From: Candidatus Hadarchaeum sp.
Lineage (GTDB): Archaea > Hadarchaeota > Hadarchaeia > Hadarchaeales > Hadarchaeaceae
Assembly (NCBI GenBank): GCA_020725895.1
Contig: DYTO01000001.1
Location: 30,894 to 94,893 of the forward strand
DNA length: 64,000 bases
Direction of reading: 5' to 3'
Part shown: positions 2,733 to 44,637 of the stretch, in pieces
Numbering within the stretch: the first letter of the stretch is position 1
Layout of the letters: the number at the start of each line of letters is the position of its first letter
Made by a program: the position numbers and the translations under genes
Notes under the pieces: generated by a model
What the model was told of the DNA's origin: nothing
Databases searched by the model: none
Seen by the model: the letters and a program-made list of their open reading frames with translations, nothing else

Positions 2733-3599
2733 TTATAAAACTGTCTTCAATTCTGACTCTGACGTTGTCTGCTGCCACTGCTGTGCGTATTTCAAAAGCC
2801 CGAGCGCGGGCTCCGCGGGAAGGGACCAATGGATTGGTCTGGCAAGTTCGGGCGTTGCGTCAAAAACTTTGAAATCTCCTATGCGCTCCGGATCCACCGG
2901 GACGGAGACGAGGCCAGTTTCCGGGTTCAGGCTCATCGGTGCCAATAATAGACCTCGCCTGACCCGAAGCTCGGAGAGGAGGCAAATGTCTGTCTCAATT
3001 CTTATGATTGTATAATTTCCAGTGGCCTTGGTCTCAGCTTCAGGCATGCGATCGTTCACGTTGCCAACAATGTGTGTCGTAAGCTCACGGTGTAGTCTGT
3101 CGAGGGCTCCGAGGTCGCCCAACCAAACTTCGTACGGGATTGCCTGCAGTGGTATAACCAAATCAAACCCGAGGTTTCCCGAAAACTTAACCCATGGTTT
3201 GACTCCGACTTCATCCAACGCTTCCACCACTAGCTTCGTGACAAATTTTGCCGTTGCCATTCCGCCCCGCTTCGCTCGGATTGTCCAGACCAGATCTGAT
3301 CCAACCGGGTTGTTGAAATCGCCGACGTAATGCCAATAGGAGCAATAAAAGGCCGAGGCATCCGTCCCTGCGATCTGGTCAAGGCCTGAATTCAGGTCTA
3401 TTGGTCTGTGAGAGTCGGACTCGTATCTCTGCACGCTCTTTGATTCCCTGTTGTAGATTGCACACTCTCGAACTGCGCTGCCCACTCTGTTATTCTTGAA
3501 GCTCAAGATCGCTTCCTTCACGTCAAGGCGCTGGTAGTACATGACCTCTCCAAACAATCCAGAGCGCTTGCGCTTTAGCGGGTTCTGGAGAGGGGTCAC
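2733..3599 (-). CDS. hypothetical protein with weak archaeo-eukaryotic primase (LigD-Pol/PrimPol-like) motif spacing, possibly degenerate
   Basis: 288 aa. KFSGNLGFDLVIPL resembles AEP motif II (SGxxGxH-xxxPL) with H replaced by D. VGDFNNP sits about 50 aa upstream where motif I (DxD) belongs. RIETDICLL sits about 50 aa downstream where motif III belongs. Spacing fits the AEP fold but the catalytic residues are substituted. Confidence 0.45.
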   Translation of the reverse strand: MTPLQNPLKRKRSGLFGEVMYYQRLDVKEAILSFKNNRVGSAVRECAIYNRESKSVQRYESDSHRPIDLNSGLDQIAGTDASAFYCSYWHYVGDFNNPVGSDLVWTIRAKRGGMATAKFVTKLVVEALDEVGVKPWVKFSGNLGFDLVIPLQAIPYEVWLGDLGALDRLHRELTTHIVGNVNDRMPEAETKATGNYTIIRIETDICLLSELRVRRGLLLAPMSLNPETGLVSVPVDPERIGDFKVFDATPELARPIHWSLPAEPALGLLKYAQQWQQTTSESELKTVL

Positions 3600-3686: not shown

Positions 3687-4076
3687 GTGAAAGATATGAA
3701 AGAAAATGAGTTCAATTATGGCTGGATTGTTGGATTTATAGAGAGCGAAGGTTTTTTTACGCAAAACACGATAAAAATAACCCGAAAATCCAAAAAGAGG
3801 CTCTTAAAATACAAATATATAAATCCCGCCTTTTTCCTCGTAAGCAAGGACATTTCTGCACTTGAAGCGGCGAAAGGCATTTTGGGAATGGGAAAAATCA
3901 AAGAGCACGGCTCGATTTTCCACCTCGAGATTAGGAGGAAAGACGATCTCCTGCGGCTGGTCAACTTTTTGGATGGGAAATTGAAGTCGAGCGCGCGCAC
4001 CCAACAGTTTGAACGCTGGAAGCAAATGGTTCTGCAGTGGAAATCAAGGAGTTGGGGAGAGGGGTCTTTTATTTAA
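3687..4076 (+). CDS. free-standing LAGLIDADG-family homing endonuclease-like protein (single-motif, homodimer type)
   Basis: 129 aa. NYGWIVGFIESEGFF matches the LAGLIDADG consensus (G-F-I-[DE]-[GS]-[DE]-G-x-F). KGILGMGKIKEHGSIFHLEIRRKDDLLRLVNFLDGKLKS is the typical downstream core. The local sequence (about 3600-4080) is markedly AT-rich against a genome of about 55% GC. Confidence 0.6.
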   Translation: MKDMKENEFNYGWIVGFIESEGFFTQNTIKITRKSKKRLLKYKYINPAFFLVSKDISALEAAKGILGMGKIKEHGSIFHLEIRRKDDLLRLVNFLDGKLKSSARTQQFERWKQMVLQWKSRSWGEGSFI

Positions 4077-4102
4077 CAAAAGACGTAGTTTTGTGTGTTC
4101 AC

Positions 4103-5098
4103 ATGGAAAAATTCGAAACCGTGATGAGAGGAGTGAGCGAAGCCGTGACGGAGGAGGAGCTGCGCGAGATAATCTCACGCGAAAATTTCTCTGTTTATTG
4201 CGGTTACGAGCCATCCGGAAAAATACACTTCGGCCATATGCTCACAGTCAACAAGCTAATCGATTTCCAAAAGATAGGCGCGCGAACGGTGGTTTTGCTC
4301 GCGAACATGCACGCGTACCTGAATGACAAGGGATCTTTAGAGGAAATAAGAAAAATCGCGGAATACAACAAGAGCTGCTTCATCGCACTCGGTCTAGACC
4401 CCAAAAAGACCGAGTTTTTGCTCGGCTCCGACTTCCAGCTCAAGCCAGATTACACCACAGATGTCATGCGGATGGCCCTGAGGACGACGTTGCTGAGGGC
4501 CAAGCGCTCCATGACTGAAATCGCGAGGCACATGGACGATCCAGACGTTGCGCAGGTCATCTACCCTTTGATGCAGGCGGTCGATATCGCGCATCTCAAG
4601 GCGGACGTGGCGGTAGGCGGCACAGACCAGCGAAAGGTCCACATGATCGCGCGCGAAAACCTACCTCTCCTGGGGTACAGAAAGCCAGTCTGCGTTCACA
4701 CGCCGCTTCTCCACGGGTTGGACGGGTCCGATAAAATGTCTTCCAGCAAGGCTAACTTCATATCAGTCGACGACGCGCCAGAAGTCATCCGAGACAAGCT
4801 GATGAAGGCTTTTTGCCCGCCAAAGCAGACGGACGATAACCCTGTTATAGAATATGCCGAACACATGGTGTTCCCGAAATTCGAGCGGCTAGAGATTGAC
4901 AGGCCGCTGAAGTACGGCGGGCACCTGGACGTCGAAAGCCCGAAAAAGCTGAAGGAAATGTACCGCGCGGGGGAGCTGCACCCGATGGACTTGAAAAAGG
5001 CAGTTTCCGAGGCCGTTGTCAGAGCCCTTGATCCAGTCAGGAAATACTTCGACAAACATCCAAAAACCGCGCGAAGCCTTTTCACGAATCTCTTTTAA
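4103..5098 (+). CDS. tyrS: tyrosyl-tRNA synthetase, archaeal type
   Basis: The track ORF 4037..5098 contains MEKFETVMRGVSEAVTEEELREI ... CGYEPSGKIHFGH (HIGH-class motif) ... KMSSSKANFI (KMSKS-like). I prefer the start at ATG 4103 because the 4037 start overlaps the LAGLIDADG ORF. Length is about 332 aa, typical of archaeal TyrRS. Confidence 0.9.
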   Translation: MEKFETVMRGVSEAVTEEELREIISRENFSVYCGYEPSGKIHFGHMLTVNKLIDFQKIGARTVVLLANMHAYLNDKGSLEEIRKIAEYNKSCFIALGLDPKKTEFLLGSDFQLKPDYTTDVMRMALRTTLLRAKRSMTEIARHMDDPDVAQVIYPLMQAVDIAHLKADVAVGGTDQRKVHMIARENLPLLGYRKPVCVHTPLLHGLDGSDKMSSSKANFISVDDAPEVIRDKLMKAFCPPKQTDDNPVIEYAEHMVFPKFERLEIDRPLKYGGHLDVESPKKLKEMYRAGELHPMDLKKAVSEAVVRALDPVRKYFDKHPKTARSLFTNLF

Positions 5099-5113: not shown

Positions 5114-5953
5114 ATGTTGGGGGTTGAGATGCGCTCAAGACCTAGATCGATTTCGATAACGTCCGGGAAGGGCGGCACAGGCAAGACCACGGTAACAGCA
5201 AACTTGGGCATCGCACTTGGGATACTCGGCAAGAGGGTCACGATTCTTGATGCCGATTTGACGATGGCGAACTTGTCCATTGTCATGGGAATGCACCAGG
5301 TAAAGACAAGTTTTCTCGACGTGTTGGCGGGGAAGGCCGATTTGAGCGCAGCCATTTACGAAAACCACGGCATCAAAATCGTTCCGACGGGGTTCCGTTT
5401 CGAGGACTCGCACGAGGCGCTTTCAAAGGCGAAGCGGCAGCGCGTGGAAGAGGCCATAAATAAGCTGATCCAGGACACGGATTTCCTTCTAATAGACGCC
5501 CCGGCAGGCATACAGGACGCGACAATAGTTTCAATAGCCGCGGCGAACGAGATGCTGGCGGTCTGCAACCCAACATACACAAGCCTCGTCGACGCTTACA
5601 AAGTCATTCGCTATGCGAACGTGATTGGCGCGTGGACCCGTGGAGTCGTGGCAAACCGCGTTGGCAAAAGAGCCGAACTGCCGAGCAGCGAGATTGAGCA
5701 GTTCATGGGGAAGACCCTAGGAAGCATGCCGGTTCTGGCGGAGATCCCCGAGGACTCGAGAGTCCAAGAGGCAGAGCTTGAGGGGGTACCCGTGGTCGTT
5801 TACGAGCCGAACTGCGCTGCCTCGGTTGCCATCAATCGCTTGGCGAAGGTCATTTCAAGCGAAGCCGCTCTGCCACAAATCTCTGACAGGAAAGAAAGCT
5901 TGGCAGAGACGACAAGGCGCCTTGCGCGTGCCCTGACGGCCAGAAATGTATAA
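5114..5953 (+). CDS. minD: MinD/ParA-family P-loop ATPase, paralog 1 of 3
   Basis: Deviant Walker A ITSGKGGTGKTT, ILDADL, LLIDAPAG (Walker B); overall MinD architecture. An alternative start at M 5129 is possible. Confidence 0.8.
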   Translation: MLGVEMRSRPRSISITSGKGGTGKTTVTANLGIALGILGKRVTILDADLTMANLSIVMGMHQVKTSFLDVLAGKADLSAAIYENHGIKIVPTGFRFEDSHEALSKAKRQRVEEAINKLIQDTDFLLIDAPAGIQDATIVSIAAANEMLAVCNPTYTSLVDAYKVIRYANVIGAWTRGVVANRVGKRAELPSSEIEQFMGKTLGSMPVLAEIPEDSRVQEAELEGVPVVVYEPNCAASVAINRLAKVISSEAALPQISDRKESLAETTRRLARALTARNV

Positions 5954-6347: not shown

Positions 6348-6633
6348 GGAACCGATCTAACCACATATCTCATTTTTTCGACCACATTGATTATTCGAGT
6401 TAACAGAAAAATCATTTTTGTTTAATCGTAGTTATACAATAGTTTAATTGTATTGACACAGCATATAAACAATTCTACTTTATTTAAATACATATCGTAA
6501 AAATACGAAAACCTGTGTAGTTTCTACCGGCCCTGCCGGCTTTATACTCGTTTCGAAAAACATCGGAATGGCACCCTTCGGCATCCGCTTTAAACACCGC
6601 CAAAGTCGCTACCCGGTATTGGAAGTGTAACAA

Positions 6634-8292
6634 ATGAAACGCAGAACGGAAGGGAGCATTCGAGTGGTTGCGGCGATATCATTGCTGTTTGTAATGTTTT
6701 TAATTACTTCTTCATTTGCTGCGGCGGCAAAGGGTGATCAAAAGACAAATGATAAAGAAGAGAAGAACACGCCGAAAAACACATTGAAGAGCAATCCCGG
6801 AAAATGGGCCGAAGTTTCCACACAGAAAGCAAATGATCAATCTTCAGTAGACGATAAAAAAGACAAAGGCAGTTCGACGCCAGCGCCACCTGTAGAAGAA
6901 CCAGAGGTAGAAGTCGATCTTCGACAGCAGGAGTTTCCTCAACTGGGGCGTCATCGACTGGCGTCTCAACTACTGGTTCCTCAACTGGGGCGTCATCGAC
7001 TGGCGTCTCAACTACTGGTTCCTCAACTGGCTCTTCTGCTGCAGGTTCCTACAGTTGAGGAAACCCCAGTTATCGAGGAGCCGGCAATTGAAACCCCTGT
7101 TGTGGAAGAGCCGGCCGCCCCCGCAGAGGAAATAGTGGTGGAAGTACCAACAGAGGCACCAATAGTTGAGGAGGCGCCGATTGAAGAAGAGCCAATTGTT
7201 GAGGCGACAGTAGAGGATCAGCCCGAAGTTCCAGAAGTTCAAGAACAATTTCCAGAAGAACCAGATGTAGAAACTCCAAGTTCCGAAGCCGAAGAAGTTA
7301 ATGTTGAGGAGCAAACAGTTGAAGAGCCAATAGGCGAAGAGCCAATTTCTGAAGATACAGTTGAGGAAACCCCAGTTATCGAGGAGCCGGCAATTGAAAC
7401 CCCTGTTGTGGAAGAGCCGGCCGAAATAGTTGAAGATGCCGCAGTAGAAACACCAGCAGAAGAAACTACTGTTGAGACGGCTGCCGAGGAACAAGTTGTT
7501 GAAGGACAGGATATCGAGGAACCTGTTGTAGAATCTCCGGTAGAGGAGACTAATGTCGATGATCAGATTACAGAAGAGCAAGTGGTCGAAGAACCCGTTG
7601 CTGAGGATGATATTGAGGAGACTGTCGAGGAGACAGCCGCCGTGGAAGAAATAGCGGTTGAGCAGCCTGTTGTTGAAGAGCAGGTAGCAACGACCGAAGT
7701 CGCAGCAACTCAAATAGTGAGCCAGAGCACGGTCAGCGTAGTTTCGTACAATCAACCAAGTGTTGCCACATCTGTGCAATCGACAGTGGCGGTCTCTGCA
7801 ATGAATTTGACAAAGGCAGAGGTCGTAACAGTAGAAAGAGTTTACCGCCAACCAGTTGTGATAACACAGACGGAAGCCGCACCTCAACCAGCGCCGTCAA
7901 CATCCCCGGCGGTACAGATAGCACAGGTTTCAACGCCGGAATTGGTGAGCGGGAGTTCTGATCAAGCGCCGTCACTGCAAACAAATACAATAAACCCGGC
8001 CGGATTGTCGACGGTTAATGCCGCTCCAACCGACATGACCATCACGGGTGCCGGACTCGGGTTTTTGGTGTTACTATTATTCGTCGCGGGCGGGCTGCTG
8101 AGACCGAAACTTTTGCCCCCCTCCATCGGTCTTAAAAAATTGCAGCCCGCCAACATAATCAAGATCAGGGTCTACAAGAGAGTCGGGCCGATACCGATTG
8201 AGCCAGCACCGGAAAGGCCGAACAGGTTGAAGGTTCTCGATAACAAGAAAATTTTGGCGCTTCTGGAAACGCCACGGATGGTAAGGGGGTGA
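6634..8292 (+). CDS. cell-surface acidic repeat protein (signal peptide, E/V/P-rich repeats, C-terminal TM anchor and basic tail)
   Basis: 552 aa. N-terminal VVAAISLLFVMFLITSSFAAAA signal, then many PxVEEP/ETPV-type acidic repeats, then ITGAGLGFLVLLLFVAGGLLRPK TM anchor. The long antisense ORF 7012..7887 is a repeat artifact. Confidence 0.7.
   Translation: MKRRTEGSIRVVAAISLLFVMFLITSSFAAAAKGDQKTNDKEEKNTPKNTLKSNPGKWAEVSTQKANDQSSVDDKKDKGSSTPAPPVEEPEVEVDLRQQEFPQLGRHRLASQLLVPQLGRHRLASQLLVPQLALLLQVPTVEETPVIEEPAIETPVVEEPAAPAEEIVVEVPTEAPIVEEAPIEEEPIVEATVEDQPEVPEVQEQFPEEPDVETPSSEAEEVNVEEQTVEEPIGEEPISEDTVEETPVIEEPAIETPVVEEPAEIVEDAAVETPAEETTVETAAEEQVVEGQDIEEPVVESPVEETNVDDQITEEQVVEEPVAEDDIEETVEETAAVEEIAVEQPVVEEQVATTEVAATQIVSQSTVSVVSYNQPSVATSVQSTVAVSAMNLTKAEVVTVERVYRQPVVITQTEAAPQPAPSTSPAVQIAQVSTPELVSGSSDQAPSLQTNTINPAGLSTVNAAPTDMTITGAGLGFLVLLLFVAGGLLRPKLLPPSIGLKKLQPANIIKIRVYKRVGPIPIEPAPERPNRLKVLDNKKILALLETPRMVRG
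6937..7030 (+). repeat. 42-bp tandem repeat (2.2 copies) in inverted orientation relative to the gene's other repeats
   Basis: The unit cctcaactggggcgtcatcgactggcgtctcaactactggtt occurs at 6937-6978 and 6979-7020, plus a partial third copy. Its reverse complement reads PVVETPVDDAPVEE in an open frame, which matches the protein's acidic repeat style. The forward strand instead encodes the odd QLGRHRLASQLLVP x2. It is flanked by the 9-bp inverted pair cctcaactg / cagttgagg. Confidence 0.6.
7051..7116 (+). repeat. 66-bp perfect direct repeat, copy 1 (copy 2 at 7357-7422)
   Basis: acagttgaggaaaccccagttatcgaggagccggcaattgaaacccctgttgtggaagagccggcc is identical at both sites, 306 bp (102 codons) apart and in frame. 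Confidence 0.8.
7357..7422 (+). repeat. 66-bp perfect direct repeat, copy 2
   Basis: Identical to 7051-7116. Confidence 0.8.
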
Positions 8293-8416
8293 AAAGAGTG
8301 ACATACAGAGCAAGAGTCGCGTCAAGCAAGAGAGTCGCGAGCAAGATAAACGAGACGGGGCCGGATGTTCTCCTGGCGATAATACGAATGATTGAAAATT
8401 GAGGAGGGTGTGAAAA

Positions 8417-8554
8417 ATGTCGGCAGCTTTACCTGAGGCGACGCCCACTGTTTGCGGGAGTTGCGGCCTTTACTACATCTACCCCGCGTACATGGACTAT
8501 GCCCAAAACCCCTGCCCACAATGCGGGCGGCACAACCACAACGGGCACGGCTGA
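8417..8554 (+). CDS. small zinc-ribbon protein (45 aa), hypothetical
   Basis: MSAALPEATPTVCGSCGLYYIYPAYMDYAQNPCPQCGRHNHNGHG has two CxxC pairs. A gaggagggtg purine-rich stretch lies 8 nt upstream. Below the track cutoff. Confidence 0.35.
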   Translation: MSAALPEATPTVCGSCGLYYIYPAYMDYAQNPCPQCGRHNHNGHG

Positions 8555-8665
8555 AATTCCTGAAATTCAGTTCGCGATCAATCGACCAAAAAAGCACAAA
8601 TTTGTGCATAGCGGTTCAGTTTTGAAAAGGCGTTTAAAGTAGCTTGAAATCAGTATAATGATGAA

Positions 8666-8941
8666 ATGAAGTTTGCTGAGTTCAAGGCACCGAAAGGCGT
8701 TATAAAAATCGAGCTTGATCTCGCGGGAGATAAAATTTCAAAAATTTCGATAAGCGGGGATTTCTTCATGTACCCGGAAGACTCGATCGAAAAACTGGAG
8801 CAGATGCTGAAAGGCACAAAAGCGGATAGGGAATCCTTGCTCGAGACGGTTGGAAAGTTTTACGATTCAACAGGGACAAAGACGCCGATGGTCGAGCCAG
8901 AGCACTGGGTGGAAGCGATTTTGCGGGCGGTTGGTGGCTAG
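8666..8941 (+). CDS. lplB: lipoate-protein ligase C-terminal domain protein (LplB of split LplA/LplB)
   Basis: 91 aa beginning MKFAEFKAPKGVIKIELDL..., the standalone LplA C-terminal domain. It lies immediately upstream of, and abuts, the catalytic lplA gene, as in Thermoplasma. Confidence 0.65.
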   Translation: MKFAEFKAPKGVIKIELDLAGDKISKISISGDFFMYPEDSIEKLEQMLKGTKADRESLLETVGKFYDSTGTKTPMVEPEHWVEAILRAVGG

Positions 8942-9697
8942 ATGGAGTGGCGTTTACTTCCGATGCGTATTGACGATGCGTTCACGAGCATGGCCATCGA
9001 CGAGGCGCTACTTAAGCTGAACGCGGAGGGCGAGTCACCAAACACAGTCAGATTTTGGCGATGGCTGCCGTCCACAGTTTCGATAGGATGCTTTCAAAGC
9101 TTGGAAAAAGAAGTGGATCTCTCCGTCGCTAAGAAATACGGGGTCGACATCGTCAGGCGCATCACCGGCGGTGGAGCCGTTTTCCACGATCATGACGGGG
9201 AATTGACTTACAGCGTCGTGTGTAGGCAGAGCGAAGTCCCGGCCGACATCATAGATTCGTACAAAATAATATGCGGAGGCCTAGTCAAAGGGTTCGAAAA
9301 TTTGGGGCTTAAAGCTGAATTCAGGCCCGTGAACGATGTCCAGGTCAATGGCAAGAAAATATCCGGGAGCGCCCAGACAAGACGATGGGGCTCGGTTCTC
9401 CAGCACGGCACAGTTCTGATTTCACCGGACGTTAGGCGGATGTTCGAGCTTTTGAGGGTGAGTCCGGAAAAGATTTCTGACAAGTTCATCGCCTCCGTTT
9501 TCGAGAGAGTCACAACAATGGAAAGAGAGCTCGGAAAAAAACCAAGTTTTGAGGAAGTCAGAGAAGCGATGAGCAATGGATTCGAAAATTCTTTGAAAGT
9601 CAAACTCCAAGAAGGAGCCCTCGCTGGAGAAGAGCTTGAGCTAGCGAATGAAATAAAGCCAAAATACGCTTCCGAAGAATGGTCAAGGAAAAGATGA
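8942..9697 (+). CDS. lplA: lipoate-protein ligase A catalytic (BPL/LPL) domain protein
   Basis: RFWRWLPSTVSIGCFQS, RRITGGGAVFHDHDGELTYSVV, VNGKKISGSAQTRRWGSVLQHGTVLI: canonical LplA catalytic motifs, including the lysine in GKKISGSAQ. Confidence 0.8.
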   Translation: MEWRLLPMRIDDAFTSMAIDEALLKLNAEGESPNTVRFWRWLPSTVSIGCFQSLEKEVDLSVAKKYGVDIVRRITGGGAVFHDHDGELTYSVVCRQSEVPADIIDSYKIICGGLVKGFENLGLKAEFRPVNDVQVNGKKISGSAQTRRWGSVLQHGTVLISPDVRRMFELLRVSPEKISDKFIASVFERVTTMERELGKKPSFEEVREAMSNGFENSLKVKLQEGALAGEELELANEIKPKYASEEWSRKR

Positions 9698-14579: not shown

Positions 14580-15689
14580 ATGCCGAAAATGAAGCGCCGG
14601 ATAGGGCTGCTGGCCGCTTTCGCGGTCGCGTTTGTAGTTCTAGCGTCAATTCAAACCTCACCTGTCGCGGCCGACGTCCAGTCAGTCCCCTCATTTGGGG
14701 TAGAGGTCACAGATTATCCGACGACGATTTCTCCGGGCGCATCATACACGATCGCGGTTAGCGTTTCTCGGCCAGAAGGCATGCCGCTTCCCAGTTGGGC
14801 TTCAGGTGATTCGCCCCCGAAATGGGAGATCAGGACGTATTTTTATGACGGCTTGAACGCTTACAGCGAAGGCGAAATGACCGACATCGGCGGTACAAAA
14901 CTATATACTGGATGGTGGGACCATCGCGTTCAGGGCGATTCTTGGACGGCCACAATGACGGACACACGGAATTTCGACATCCCAAACAAAATCGTCTCTT
15001 ACCCGCGTGCCGCAGATGAGATAACCGATGGAAAAATGAACGAGATTCCATTCGGGGAGGAGGTCAAACTAAAAGTAAAGTTGAGATTGAGGTGGGGGGA
15101 TTCGCAACTTCAGTTCAAAAACATCGATAATGACGAGGAGAACGAGTTGACTTTCACATACTACGGCGTGGAGTACGGTGGAGATTACACGGAAATAAAA
15201 GCCAATGTTAAATATCGAGTTGGAAGCGTTTATCTTGAAAAGAGCGAGGGCAACTACTGGCAAATAGATTACGAAACGATAAAGCAGGGAATCCTAGTTT
15301 CTGGCTCAGCGGGAGGCCTGCCGATAGAATTGATCGGGGGCGGAGTGGTCGCTCTTGTCGCCGTTGGAGCGATAATCGGTTTCATGAAGAAGCGCGGCGG
15401 CGGGGAAGCAAAGTACGAGGAATATTCTCAGCCTGCGCAGGCGCCATCGATGGCACTGCCACCAACCACATATCAAATGCCGACCCAAGCGCCCACACCG
15501 ACTTATCAGCAGGCGCCAACACAAGCGTATCCGCAAGTGCCTGCGCAAGCCACGCCACAAGCACCTCCACAAACATATCAGGTCCCGACACAAGCGCCTC
15601 CGCAGGCGCCACAGCAAGCGCAACAGAGCGCACAACCTCAGCAGCCCGAAGCGAAGAAGAAGAAAGAGAAAGACGACTTTGATTTCTAG
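14580..15689 (+). CDS. secreted, membrane-anchored protein, paralog B, with P/Q/T-rich cytoplasmic tail
   Basis: Shares EIRTYFYDG and KIVSYPRAA with paralog A. Signal peptide, TM GGGVVALVAVGAIIGFM, then an APTQ-rich low-complexity tail ending KKKKEKDDFDF. Start taken at MPKMKRR; the track starts at 14517. Confidence 0.65.
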   Translation: MPKMKRRIGLLAAFAVAFVVLASIQTSPVAADVQSVPSFGVEVTDYPTTISPGASYTIAVSVSRPEGMPLPSWASGDSPPKWEIRTYFYDGLNAYSEGEMTDIGGTKLYTGWWDHRVQGDSWTATMTDTRNFDIPNKIVSYPRAADEITDGKMNEIPFGEEVKLKVKLRLRWGDSQLQFKNIDNDEENELTFTYYGVEYGGDYTEIKANVKYRVGSVYLEKSEGNYWQIDYETIKQGILVSGSAGGLPIELIGGGVVALVAVGAIIGFMKKRGGGEAKYEEYSQPAQAPSMALPPTTYQMPTQAPTPTYQQAPTQAYPQVPAQATPQAPPQTYQVPTQAPPQAPQQAQQSAQPQQPEAKKKKEKDDFDF

Positions 15690-16390
15690 GTGCGCAGGAG
15701 TTTCCTGGCCAAGTTAGTTATCGCAGAGTACGCCGAGGACTTTGGTGACGACACCATTAGCGGGACCCCTTCTTTCAGAGCCTTCATCACGGCGTCGTCT
15801 TCAGGAACAGTCCCAAGCAACGGCACATTCATGATCTCTTTTATCTCATCCTTGTCAAGCTCGAATTCCTCGCCCCTGACGCGGTTGAGAACGAACCCGA
15901 TTGGCCGAGACCCCAAAAATTCCGCGACAAGGCGGGTTTTCATGCAGTCGGAAACAGCAACCATGTCGGGTGTTGTCACAAGCAAAGTCTCGCTGGAGGA
16001 CCTGAGCGCAGCCACGGTTTCTCTCCTCAGACCCCCCGAGGTGTCAATCAAGACGAAATCCGCCTTCACAGCAAGATTTTTCATTATCTCTGGCAGCTGC
16101 TCAGGGCGCGTCCTCTTTATCTGTTGCAGGGTCACCGCCGCCGGAGCGATTTTAACCCCCATCGGCCCCGTGTAAAGGACGTTGTCGAACACAGTTTCGC
16201 CTACTATGGCGTCGTTTATTGTGTAGATCGCCTTCTCAAGCTTGAAAAGGAGCGCGAGATCAGGCGTTGTGAAACACGCGTCGATTATTATCGTCTCCTT
16301 GCCCATCTTGGCAAGCGCGAGGCCTAGGTTCGCAACTAGCGTGGTGCGCCCAACTCCTCCCTTCCCTGATGCAACAGCGATAACCCGCAT
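15686..16390 (-). CDS. minD: MinD/ParA-family ATPase, paralog 2 of 3
   Basis: MRVIAVASGKGGVGRTT deviant Walker A, then FVLIDTSGG. Start taken at internal ATG 16390; the track ORF extends to 16483. The 3' end overlaps the paralog B stop by 4 nt, convergent. Confidence 0.8.
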   Translation of the reverse strand: MRVIAVASGKGGVGRTTLVANLGLALAKMGKETIIIDACFTTPDLALLFKLEKAIYTINDAIVGETVFDNVLYTGPMGVKIAPAAVTLQQIKRTRPEQLPEIMKNLAVKADFVLIDTSGGLRRETVAALRSSSETLLVTTPDMVAVSDCMKTRLVAEFLGSRPIGFVLNRVRGEEFELDKDEIKEIMNVPLLGTVPEDDAVMKALKEGVPLMVSSPKSSAYSAITNLARKLLRT

Positions 16391-16476
16391 ATAACCACCA
16401 GACCTCTTTAACAGGTTTGTAAATTGATATCCTTTTTCGCTTTTAAATAGGGCCCGACTAAATAAGGAGGGGGAGA

Positions 16477-17670
16477 ATGCCACAAAAATACGATGTAGTA
16501 GTCGTGGGGGCGGGGCCAGCAGGACTGGCGGCAGCGAGTTCGGCTGCGGCGGAAGGCGCGAAGACCCTAGTGCTGGAAATGCGAGCGCAGGTCGGCGGAC
16601 AGTTGAATTTTGAAAGCTTGGTGTCTCAGGAGTTGGCGAAGGACTTCAAAGGCGCCGCTGTCGGCGAAATCAGAGAATTGAGGCTGATCTCTCCCAAAGA
16701 AAAACTTGCGGTCAGGGGAAAAGTAGGAAAGATTCTCGACAGGGAAGAAGTTTCCAGGATTTTGGCCAACAAGGCGGTGTCTTCTGGAGCCGAGATATGG
16801 ATCAACTCGCCCGTGAAGCACCTTTTGGCAAACGATGGGATTGTCCGCGGCGTGAAAGCCGAGTCCGGCAGTTGGTCCGAGATCGTGAACTCTGAAGTGC
16901 TAATAGACGCCACAGGAAGCGCGGGTCAATTTTCGAGCATTTTCTTGAGGAAATTCTTGAAAAAAGAATGGGCATTCGAGGAACTGGCTTTTTCAAACGA
17001 ATATCTGATGGCCAATTCAAACGTCACCGCGCCTGAAATTTACTTCAACTCATACGTTGCGCCGGGCGGCCGGGCCTGGATATACCCGTTCGGGGCTGGG
17101 AACTCCTTGGCCGGAATCTACGGCATAAGGATCCATCCGGACACGGCGTTGGACGAGTTCATAGGAAGGGTTTCCCCTAGCTCGCTCACAAAAGCCTCCC
17201 CGATAGTTTCAACAAGAGGCCAAATCCCGCTTCAGGGCCCGCTGGATCAAACTTGCGGCAATGGGATAATTTCAGTGGGGGCGGCAGCAGGCCAAATTAA
17301 CCCCCTCACAGGCAACGGCTTACGGTACGCGCTAGCGTGCGGGGAAATCGCCGGGAGGGCCGCCGTCGAGGCGGTCACGGAAGGCGAAGTTTCGGAGTCC
17401 AGACTTTCTGAAGCCGACAAGAATTGGAAATCCATATTCTCCTCGGAATTCGAAGCGTGCAAAGCCGTTCATTCTTTCCTGAAAGTTTCGCAGGACAAAA
17501 AGATGGACAGCATTTTGAAAGTACTGAAAGGCAGTCCGAATGCAAGGAGATCTTTCACAAACGTTTTCACAGACTCAAAACTGAATCACTCTCTAAAGAC
17601 GCTGGTGAAGAGCGAAGTTGGCAAAATCCTCGGGCAAGAAGTCTCAGACAGGGTTTTGAATCTTGTCTAG
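16477..17670 (+). CDS. geranylgeranyl reductase-family FAD-dependent oxidoreductase
   Basis: MPQKYDVVVVGAGPAGL (GxGxxG FAD site). The 397 aa length and overall similarity fit archaeal digeranylgeranylglycerophospholipid reductase. Confidence 0.8.
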   Translation: MPQKYDVVVVGAGPAGLAAASSAAAEGAKTLVLEMRAQVGGQLNFESLVSQELAKDFKGAAVGEIRELRLISPKEKLAVRGKVGKILDREEVSRILANKAVSSGAEIWINSPVKHLLANDGIVRGVKAESGSWSEIVNSEVLIDATGSAGQFSSIFLRKFLKKEWAFEELAFSNEYLMANSNVTAPEIYFNSYVAPGGRAWIYPFGAGNSLAGIYGIRIHPDTALDEFIGRVSPSSLTKASPIVSTRGQIPLQGPLDQTCGNGIISVGAAAGQINPLTGNGLRYALACGEIAGRAAVEAVTEGEVSESRLSEADKNWKSIFSSEFEACKAVHSFLKVSQDKKMDSILKVLKGSPNARRSFTNVFTDSKLNHSLKTLVKSEVGKILGQEVSDRVLNLV

Positions 17671-23704: not shown

Positions 23705-23852
23705 GGGGTCGTAGTGTAGCTTGGCAGCACACCGGCCCAGAACCGGGCTGAAGGCAGGCTCCAGTGGATGCTTGTAGGTCTGCTGACGAAAGGATGATGA
23801 CCTATTGGAGCGGTGAGACCTGCAAATCCGGGTTCAAATCCTGGCGACCCCA
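23705..23852 (+). tRNA. tRNA-Trp(CCA) with 53-nt intron between positions 37/38, plus a possible second roughly 20-nt insertion 5' of the anticodon stem
   Basis: Acceptor GGGGTCG (23705-11) pairs CGACCCC (23845-51), discriminator A 23852. D-arm GTGT/ACAC. Anticodon stem GCAGG (23754-58) pairs CCTGC (23819-23). Anticodon loop CT-CCA-G, anticodon 23761-63. T-arm CCGGG-TTCAAAT-CCTGG (23828-44). Intron 23765-23817. An extra CGGCCCAGAACCGGGCTGAA (about 23733-23752) between D-arm and anticodon stem is unexplained. Confidence 0.6.
23765..23817 (+). ncRNA. tRNA-Trp intron with box C/D-like guide RNA motifs
   Basis: Canonical C' box ATGATGA (23794-800) and D' box CTGA (23783-86); degenerate terminal boxes (TGGATGC 5', GTGAG 3'). 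Guide TGTAGGT (23773-79) pairs exon ACCTGCA, placing the N+5 nucleotide opposite tRNA position 39. Guide TTGGAGC (23805-11) pairs exon GCTCCA, with G23808 opposite C34. Confidence 0.45.
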
Positions 23853-43824: not shown

Positions 43825-44637
43825 ATGGTGGAGACCTTGGACCCCTCGAATCAAAAGCCTTTGAAAAAAATCCTGAGCGGGTTCGAGCGGGGGCGAAGAC
43901 CAAAGATAACCGCAAGACGGGCGTACATCTTGGGAGTTTTTTCATGTAAAGGCGGCGTCGGGAAGACAACGACCGCGGCCAACATCGGAACCGCGCTGGC
44001 GGAAAAATTGGGAGAAGGAATCCTCCTCGTCGAGGCAAATCTCTCCGCGCCAAACTTGGGGCTTCATCTGGGAATACTGGACGTAGAGACTAGCATGCAC
44101 GACGTCATGGCCGGAGCGGCCCCGATAGACAAAGCCATACACACCGTTGGAGGGAATTTGCAGGCCATACCTGGATCGCTCGCTTACGAGGAAGAAATCC
44201 ATTACGTGGATTTCAAAGCGAAGATCGAGCCGCTGAGAAGCAAATATAAGTTAATTATATTGGATGCGGGGCCAGGGCTCGGCGCAGAGGCGATTTCTTC
44301 GATAAAAGCAAGCGACGAGATGCTGATAGTCACGAATCCCGAAATCCCGACGATTGCGAGCACTCTCAGGACATTCAGGGCGGCCGAGCGATACAGGGTC
44401 CCGATAATGGGGACGGTGGTCAACAAGGTGCGCGGGAAGAATTACGAGGTTCCTCTTTCGGAGGTGAAAAAGAGCCTAGGCTGGCCGATTCTGATGTCTA
44501 TTCCGGACGATGAAAAGGTGAGGGAAAGTTTGACCGCCGGGGTGCCAGTAGTCAAATTCGCTCCTAAATCTTCTGCGGCGCGCGCCTTCAACGAACTAGC
44601 TGAGCGGATTTACGAGAAGCTAGGTTCCAAACTTTAA
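43825..44637 (+). CDS. minD: MinD/ParA-family ATPase, paralog 3 of 3
   Basis: ILGVFSCKGGVGKTTT deviant Walker A, ILDAGPG Walker B. 270 aa. Confidence 0.8.
   Translation: MVETLDPSNQKPLKKILSGFERGRRPKITARRAYILGVFSCKGGVGKTTTAANIGTALAEKLGEGILLVEANLSAPNLGLHLGILDVETSMHDVMAGAAPIDKAIHTVGGNLQAIPGSLAYEEEIHYVDFKAKIEPLRSKYKLIILDAGPGLGAEAISSIKASDEMLIVTNPEIPTIASTLRTFRAAERYRVPIMGTVVNKVRGKNYEVPLSEVKKSLGWPILMSIPDDEKVRESLTAGVPVVKFAPKSSAARAFNELAERIYEKLGSKL

Follow-up and report, generated by a model that had tools for sequence, protein, structure and literature searches.

A 132-nt block in reverse-complement orientation within the acidic repeat array of a predicted membrane protein gene of Candidatus Hadarchaeum sp.

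The DNA analysed here, referred to throughout as the window, comprises 64,000 nt of Candidatus Hadarchaeum sp. (GenBank assembly GCA_020725895.1, contig DYTO01000001.1, positions 30,894 to 94,893 of the forward strand), and all positions given are those of the window. An open reading frame (ORF) of 552 aa at 6634-8292 (+) encodes a predicted type-I membrane protein, apparently lineage-specific, with a long acidic ectodomain of low complexity. Within this gene, 132 nt (44 codons) at 6917-7048 lie on the wrong strand, the acidic repeat being readable there on the minus strand only. The explanation that we favour, and consider on balance probable, is a real, single and recent inversion of 132 nt at an unstable repeat, non-programmed, by which a piece of the array would have been turned round in place.

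Orientation was assessed by three mechanical tests, a six-frame scan, purine content and codon models, and all three agreed. In the scan of all 64 kb, the acidic, P/V/T-rich composition was found only at 7051-7725 on the plus strand and at 6917-7048 on the minus strand. Purine content was 0.417 in the block versus 0.62-0.63 in both flanks. One codon model was trained on 29 housekeeping genes in the window and a second on the acidic array. With the housekeeping model the reverse frame of the block scored +0.19 bits/codon, the acidic array +0.18 on average and the frame in use -0.45; with the acid-domain model the reverse frame scored +1.42 and the frame in use -1.15. Read on the minus strand, 6917-7048 gives EPAAEEPVEEPVVETPVDDAPVEEPVVETPVDDAPVEETPAVED; these 44 codons match the repeat type found elsewhere in the gene, encode no K or R and are undecayed over their whole length. 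The in-frame forward reading, (D)LRQQEFPQLGRHRLASQLLVPQLGRHRLASQLLVPQLALLLQV, is basic and hydrophobic, contains the motif QLGRHRLASQLLVP twice in succession and would yield the tryptic peptide LASQLLVPQLGR.

These results bear on an earlier note on this DNA, which was made from the sequence alone. It had held that the reverse complement of 6937-7030 encodes the repeat type of the gene, and this was borne out over a longer interval, 6917-7048; its view that the block was part of the repeat array of this gene, lying in reverse-complement orientation, is supported by the six-frame, purine and codon results. It had also called the forward reading stop-free and alien in composition. Both descriptions are true, but the absence of stops is unremarkable and no sign of design, as the block contains no stop in any of its three forward frames. 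For the same reason, selection was rejected as an explanation of the open forward reading. The possibility that the block had recently been copied in inverted form from elsewhere in the gene was also considered and rejected, as identity to the block was at most 67% anywhere in the array; the longest exact match of its reverse complement to the rest of the array was 13 nt.

Breakpoints were located by exhaustive enumeration of in-place flips with ends at 6900-6949 and 7025-7074. All non-acidic residues were removed only when the left breakpoint lay within 6917-6920 and the right one within 7042-7049. A flip of 6916-7048 gave ...PVEEPEVEV|EPAAEE...ETPAVED|PTVEETPVIEEP..., an unbroken acidic reading with no stop, and 6917-7048, once reverse-complemented, would join the array in frame at both ends without extra bases. 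The left junction, GAAGTCGA|TCTTCGACAG as assembled and GTAGAAGTC|GAACCTGCAGCAG when restored by the flip, falls in a quasi-palindrome, GTCGA-TCT-TCGAC (6913-6925). The right junction (7039-7049), GCTGCAGGTTC|CTACAGTTGAGG as assembled and GCTGTCGAAGAT|CCTACAGTTG when restored, includes a CTGCAG palindrome at 7039-7044. Read base by base, the breakpoint ends share 2 bp of microhomology only (GA/TC), and the inversion was therefore not between long inverted repeats; none flank the block.

Shorter inverted repeats are present, with their arms off the ends of the block. A perfect 13-nt inverted repeat has its left arm, GTTTCCTCAACTG, at 6933-6945, inside the inverted block, and its right arm, CAGTTGAGGAAAC, at 7052-7064, in the forward-coded repeat. 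It forms part of a 28-nt pair (6918-6945 and 7052-7079) that is 82% complementary (23/28). The related motifs recur along the array, CCTCAACTG at 6937, 6979 and 7021 and CAGTTGAGG at 7052 and 7358. The inverted stretch overshoots the left arm by 16 nt, to 6917, and the 15 nt to the left of that arm (6918-6932) are also reverse-coded, reading ETPAVED; the right end, within 7042-7049, precedes the right arm. A flip between the arms, or one that includes them, gave ...DLRQQEFPQL-TAG, with a stop at codon 105. A flip mediated by these inverted repeats was accordingly rejected as the origin of the block, since it yields the stop and leaves 6918-6945 non-native. The local context contains 11 inverted-repeat pairs, and 6900-7130 has a predicted fold of -99.9 kcal/mol (z = -4.47). 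Much of this quasi-palindromic and inverted-repeat context is a product of the inversion itself: the arms, the junction quasi-palindrome and the strong hairpin follow from one repeat unit having been turned to face its forward neighbours. The short inverted repeats and the junction palindromes are thus consequences of the inversion and not recombination sites. The 9-bp inverted repeats and the ctgcag previously described as flanking the block do exist, the former as part of the 13-nt perfect repeat, but they do not bound it. The suggestion of an invertible or phase-variable segment that accompanied them was not supported, given the arms off the block ends, the TAG at codon 105, the 2-bp breakpoints and the failure to find a recombinase domain among about 45 ORFs scanned across the window.

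Two further repeat features adjoin or lie within the block. Inside it, Tandem Repeats Finder reported a perfect tandem repeat at 6935-7030, with a 42-nt unit, 2.3 copies, 100% identity and a score of 192, as the tandem duplication of a 42-bp unit in the earlier note had implied. Next to it, a perfect direct repeat of 68 nt, TVEETPVIEEPAIETPVVEEPA, has its first copy at 7050-7117 (+), starting 1-2 nt past the right breakpoint, and its second at 7356-7423 (+), 306 nt (102 codons) downstream. This repeat, too, had been reported, at 66 bp and the same spacing; its length is 68 nt. Its edges are abrupt, with 100% identity inside and about 50% just outside, which is the background of the array. The remainder of the array repeats at 50-80% identity. 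An origin of the 68-nt repeat in a former 306-nt tandem duplication was rejected, because its flanks stood at background in every in-frame register; the repeat is an isolated patch. The proposal that these perfect, in-frame copies could mediate expansion or contraction of the gene is supported, and a 102-codon deletion or expansion could arise in this way.

None of these repeat features is a chance match. By a rough estimate, a repeat edge would lie some 5 nt or less from a breakpoint by chance, in an array of about 800 nt, with a probability of a few per cent. The presence of three young rearrangements in 6917-7117 thus suggests a single complex event, a single fragile spot or a single local assembly problem. 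The undecayed reverse reading, together with the perfection of the repeats, suggests that the inversion was recent.

In the favoured explanation, two routes to the inversion may be envisaged. A replicating strand could have switched to the complementary template and back, by an inter-strand template switch or a process like microhomology-mediated break-induced replication (MMBIR), or a fragment could have been re-ligated after two breaks. The same event or fragile spot would plausibly have produced the 42-nt tandem duplication and the 68-nt patch as well, all within 200 nt. The ORF would have survived trivially, with its length unchanged and every forward frame of the block stop-free; the downstream frame is kept because an in-place inversion preserves length. 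The result would be a basic, hydrophobic insert of 44 residues in a strongly acidic stalk, in a region that is presumably tolerant. Mutation by a short-range template switch is reportedly what Ripley's quasi-palindrome model describes.

Template switching has been found to replace a fragment by its own reverse complement with length unchanged, including in coding DNA (PMC5453318; PMC8604942), and a four-point model of the process has been given (Loytynoja & Goldman 2017, PMC5453318). The present case resembles such events in that a coding fragment was apparently exchanged for its own reverse complement at the same length with its residues recoded, in a quasi-palindromic context, with short inverted repeats and a strong hairpin afterwards and no requirement for enzyme-specific sites. 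It differs in size, 132 nt versus tens of nt in human-chimp comparisons and the 2-5 bp of all ten spacer inversions described in yeast genes (Abraham & Hazkani-Covo 2021, PMC8604942). It also differs in that the breakpoints lie off the perfect inverted-repeat arms and in having no ancestral sequence by which to polarise the event. The tandem duplication and the 68-nt patch, moreover, suggest several switches of the MMBIR-like kind, not one switch-and-return. Because the block is longer, its breakpoints are off the arms and a duplication and a templated-looking patch accompany it, a multi-switch event or a break and re-joining would fit better than a single switch and return.

Several points weigh against an inversion in the organism. 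The un-inverted state was seen in no outgroup or second strain, the gene being without a homologue and absent from 80 syntenic relatives. The known template-switch inversions in coding DNA are far shorter, namely the 2-5 bp yeast spacers cited above (PMC8604942). Both fixation of the inversion in the population and its reality in the DNA are presumed from assembled sequence, and three perfect anomalies within 200 nt of repeat might also signal a local misassembly. An assembly or consensus artefact, or the capture of a minority haplotype, was therefore weighed as an alternative, in which the predominant gene has the block forward and acidic and the local path of the contig is wrong, the errors being the orientation, the tandem copy number and the 68-nt repeat. 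It would account for the clustering of the inversion, the 42-nt x 2.3 repeat and the abutting 68-nt repeat, all perfect, in the low-complexity region 6917-7117. The source is apparently an uncultured archaeon. In public collections it is represented only by a Logan contig of 1.4 kb (SRR13164374), and its nearest relatives are known as metagenome contigs. No protein of the gene was called in the independent Logan assembly of that run, so that the junctions are uncorroborated. Against it stand the junctions themselves, which share only the 2 bp of microhomology. Elsewhere in the window their k-mers, like the block itself, find exact matches of at most 13 nt, from which it would follow that a de Bruijn assembler could not create them by repeat confusion and would require reads that carry both, as far as the behaviour of such assemblers can be anticipated. 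An exact, length-preserving inversion with two junctions is also atypical of chimeras. An artefact is in our judgement unlikely, though a serious contender.

The other alternatives concern the function of the block. An invertible element within the gene (intragenic inverton), flipped through homologous recombination at the 13/28-nt repeats or by a recombinase whose gene lies elsewhere, would vary a surface protein across the population. A 106-nt segment (6946-7051) of the gene, whose protein is predicted to be surface-exposed, does lie between the arms of the inverted repeat (13 nt perfect, 28 nt at 82%), intragenic invertons are known and one has been reported in an archaeon (bioRxiv 10.1101/2023.03.11.532203), and a flip bounded by the arms would truncate the protein at codon 105, premature stops being one of two outcome classes on record. 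Yet the arms fail to bound the inverted stretch, which runs 16 nt past the left one, and are explained by homology between repeat units. Neither orientation of the segment between the arms is wholly native, the acidic reading lying behind the TAG and the alien reading being the open one. No recombinase, resolvase or transposase domain was found in the scanned ORFs, which are housekeeping or of unknown function; the nuclease-like gene nearest to the block, a LAGLIDADG ORF beside tyrS, is not an invertase. Nothing points to two orientations, and the gene has no homologues and hence no conservation. The intragenic invertons of the reference study have inverted repeats at their boundaries and occur in both orientations among the reads, and only one of them came from Archaea (Chanin et al., bioRxiv 10.1101/2023.03.11.532203). 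The block is like them in being confined to a single gene, in recoding part of a probably surface-exposed protein and in having nearby inverted repeats whose length (13 nt perfect) is typical, a flip between which would give a premature stop. It is unlike them in its single observed orientation, in the lack of a nearby invertase, in having the non-native reading as the open orientation and in its inverted repeats, which are off the ends of the stretch and result from homology between repeat units. We consider an inverton very doubtful. Slightly more doubtful still is its most far-reaching form, a recoding element that toggles 44 residues of a cell-surface stalk between acidic EPAAEEPVEE... and the basic, hydrophobic repeat pair, or serves as a TAG off-switch. 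Hardly credible, to the same degree, is a native and selected forward reading, by which an old inverted duplication would have been kept for a function such as a basic or amphipathic patch in the stalk, or a hairpin formed with the downstream repeat in mRNA or DNA. The reading is open, two weak helices are predicted over it (aa 102-117 and 122-135, at a predicted local distance difference test score, pLDDT, of about 50-57), and 6900-7130 folds unusually well, at the z score given above. However, its codon statistics are non-coding-like (-0.45 versus +0.18 bits/codon for the array), the reverse reading is undecayed over 44 codons, openness is expected where all three frames are open, a strong fold is automatic when an inverted unit lies beside forward units, and no homologues exist to show conservation. 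The evidence as a whole is most consistent with the single, non-programmed inversion, whose mechanism and recency we infer from the assembled sequence.

The 552-aa protein has a signal-peptide-like N-terminus (6634-6729, +; MKRR, a hydrophobic core and AAAA), in which cleavage may be expected, followed by a Lys-rich stretch. The forward-coded acidic array occupies 7051-7686 (+), aa 140-351, with a degenerate period of 15 nt (5 aa) that, according to Tandem Repeats Finder, spans the entire acidic region. Its 212 aa include 69 E, 38 V and 25 P, are rich in E/V/P/T/A/I and carry a net charge of -78. A Ser/Thr/Val/Gln-rich region then leads to a single predicted transmembrane (TM) helix, GLGFLVLLLFVAGGLL (aa 472-493; 8047-8112, +), located by translation and by an AlphaFold2 model, and a basic C-terminal tail of 59 aa (8113-8289, +). 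The AlphaFold2 model, made from the single sequence, was of low confidence (pLDDT 43.7), and the N-terminus (aa 4-42, pLDDT 64-78) and the TM segment were its sole confidently predicted helices. The remaining helices were a short C-terminal one and the two weak ones over the anomalous block, the rest being coil, and the model offered no fold usable for structure search. The ectodomain is probably a long, disordered acidic stalk derived from the degenerate 15-nt repeat. On the opposite strand, an antisense ORF of 291 aa (7012-7887, -) extends across the acidic array; it is open because the frame lacks TTA, CTA and TCA owing to the array composition, and is a compositional by-product not annotatable as a gene.

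The architecture agrees with that of a typical archaeal surface protein, as the product had been described, in its signal-like N-terminus, acidic region and one TM helix. The description went too far in that the protein matched no family in Pfam or NCBIfam, the archaeal PGF-CTERM sorting signal included (NCBIfam scan, E <= 1, 0 families), and has no detectable homologue. Acidic or proline-rich surface stalks, such as extensin-like proteins (PF02095) and archaeal PGF-CTERM glycoproteins, likewise combine a signal peptide, a biased spacer and a C-terminal anchor, with repeat arrays prone to in-frame expansion and contraction. The present protein differs from them in that its database matches are compositional only, it has no PGF-CTERM or other sorting signal, its tail past the TM helix is 59 aa versus a short basic tip, and it has no S-layer or other folded domain.

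Homologues were sought with the whole protein and with its parts, and no orthologue for the comparison proposed in the earlier note came to light. The exact 552-aa protein is not on record in public collections, and the full-length search gave only compositional matches (extensin-like proteins, PF02095). The C-terminal 201 aa had 0 matches in a word-indexed set of 5.8 billion proteins and in a full HMMER search over 1.84 billion representatives, and the N-terminal 139 aa, including the forward reading of the block, also had 0 matches. By sequence comparison the gene thus appears to be an orphan outside any described protein family. A 24-mer just upstream of the block had no exact match in JGI metagenome contigs.

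Relatives were located through neighbouring genes. A scan of GTDB genomes with the neighbouring MinD found nothing close. In metagenomes, LplA, also a neighbour, led to 80 syntenic loci at 70-83% identity, in many of which the gene order is TyrRS-MinD-DUF3147(-)-[slot]-LplC-LplA-rSAM-rSAM. The gene was missing from 80/80 of these loci (tblastn with four parts of the protein, 0 matches). The slot, at 6348-8665 in the window, is variable within the conserved order, measuring 0.4-6.9 kb in relatives (loci L007-L060) and containing a macro-domain protein, an ABC transporter pair, a protein of about 300 aa with N- and C-terminal TM helices, and others. One Logan contig of SRR13164374 (L002) equals window positions 8314-9695 with 1 mismatch in 1382 nt, and so belongs to the same population. 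It starts at 8314, 22 nt past the stop codon of the gene, and the Logan assembly of that run contained no called protein from any part of the acidic-repeat gene. The run accession was not found in any paper. Just downstream of the gene, a 45-aa ORF (8417-8554, +) with two CxxC pairs has weak matches to small archaeal zinc-ribbon or zinc-finger proteins (E ~0.01); it is identical on the Logan contig, and a homologue was not detected in the syntenic relatives.

The contig is archaeal, encoding aEF-2 and an archaeal-type GltX, and also carries a tRNA with an apparent intron. The latter is an Rfam tRNA match at 23705-23852 (+) that covers the full model (1-71) over 148 nt, was not called by ARAGORN and is probably an intron-containing archaeal tRNA. 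The LAGLIDADG endonuclease ORF is free-standing (3687-4076, +; PF00961, E = 6.7e-9), directly precedes the tyrosyl-tRNA synthetase gene tyrS (4037-5098) and overlaps its start; it is also found beside tyrS in the distant relatives L020, L024, L049 and L050 at about 60% identity, so that the association is conserved. An ORF at 2733-3599 (-) resembles the LigD primase-polymerase domain weakly, below threshold (E = 1.6e-4), and is conserved beside tyrS in several relatives at 41-48% identity. Three MinD/ParA-type P-loop ATPase genes lie within 40 kb, at 5114-5953 (+), 15686-16483 (-) and 43825-44637 (+).

Either the feature adds another instance to a known class of mutation or it reflects a flaw of assembly. 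It opens no new biological question, and wider interest would attach to it only under the unlikely reading as a programmed switch, which, if true, would make it one of the first archaeal intragenic invertons, located moreover in a surface protein. In practice it calls for caution in the annotation of metagenome-assembled genomes and in inverton screens, since, if the inversion is real, the inverted repeats sought by inverton-finding programs can arise as by-products. A real inversion would also be a clean natural case of a fairly large (132-nt) in-place inversion that survives within a gene, because the low-complexity repeat is open in every frame, and would illustrate how repeat arrays gain abruptly different sequence.

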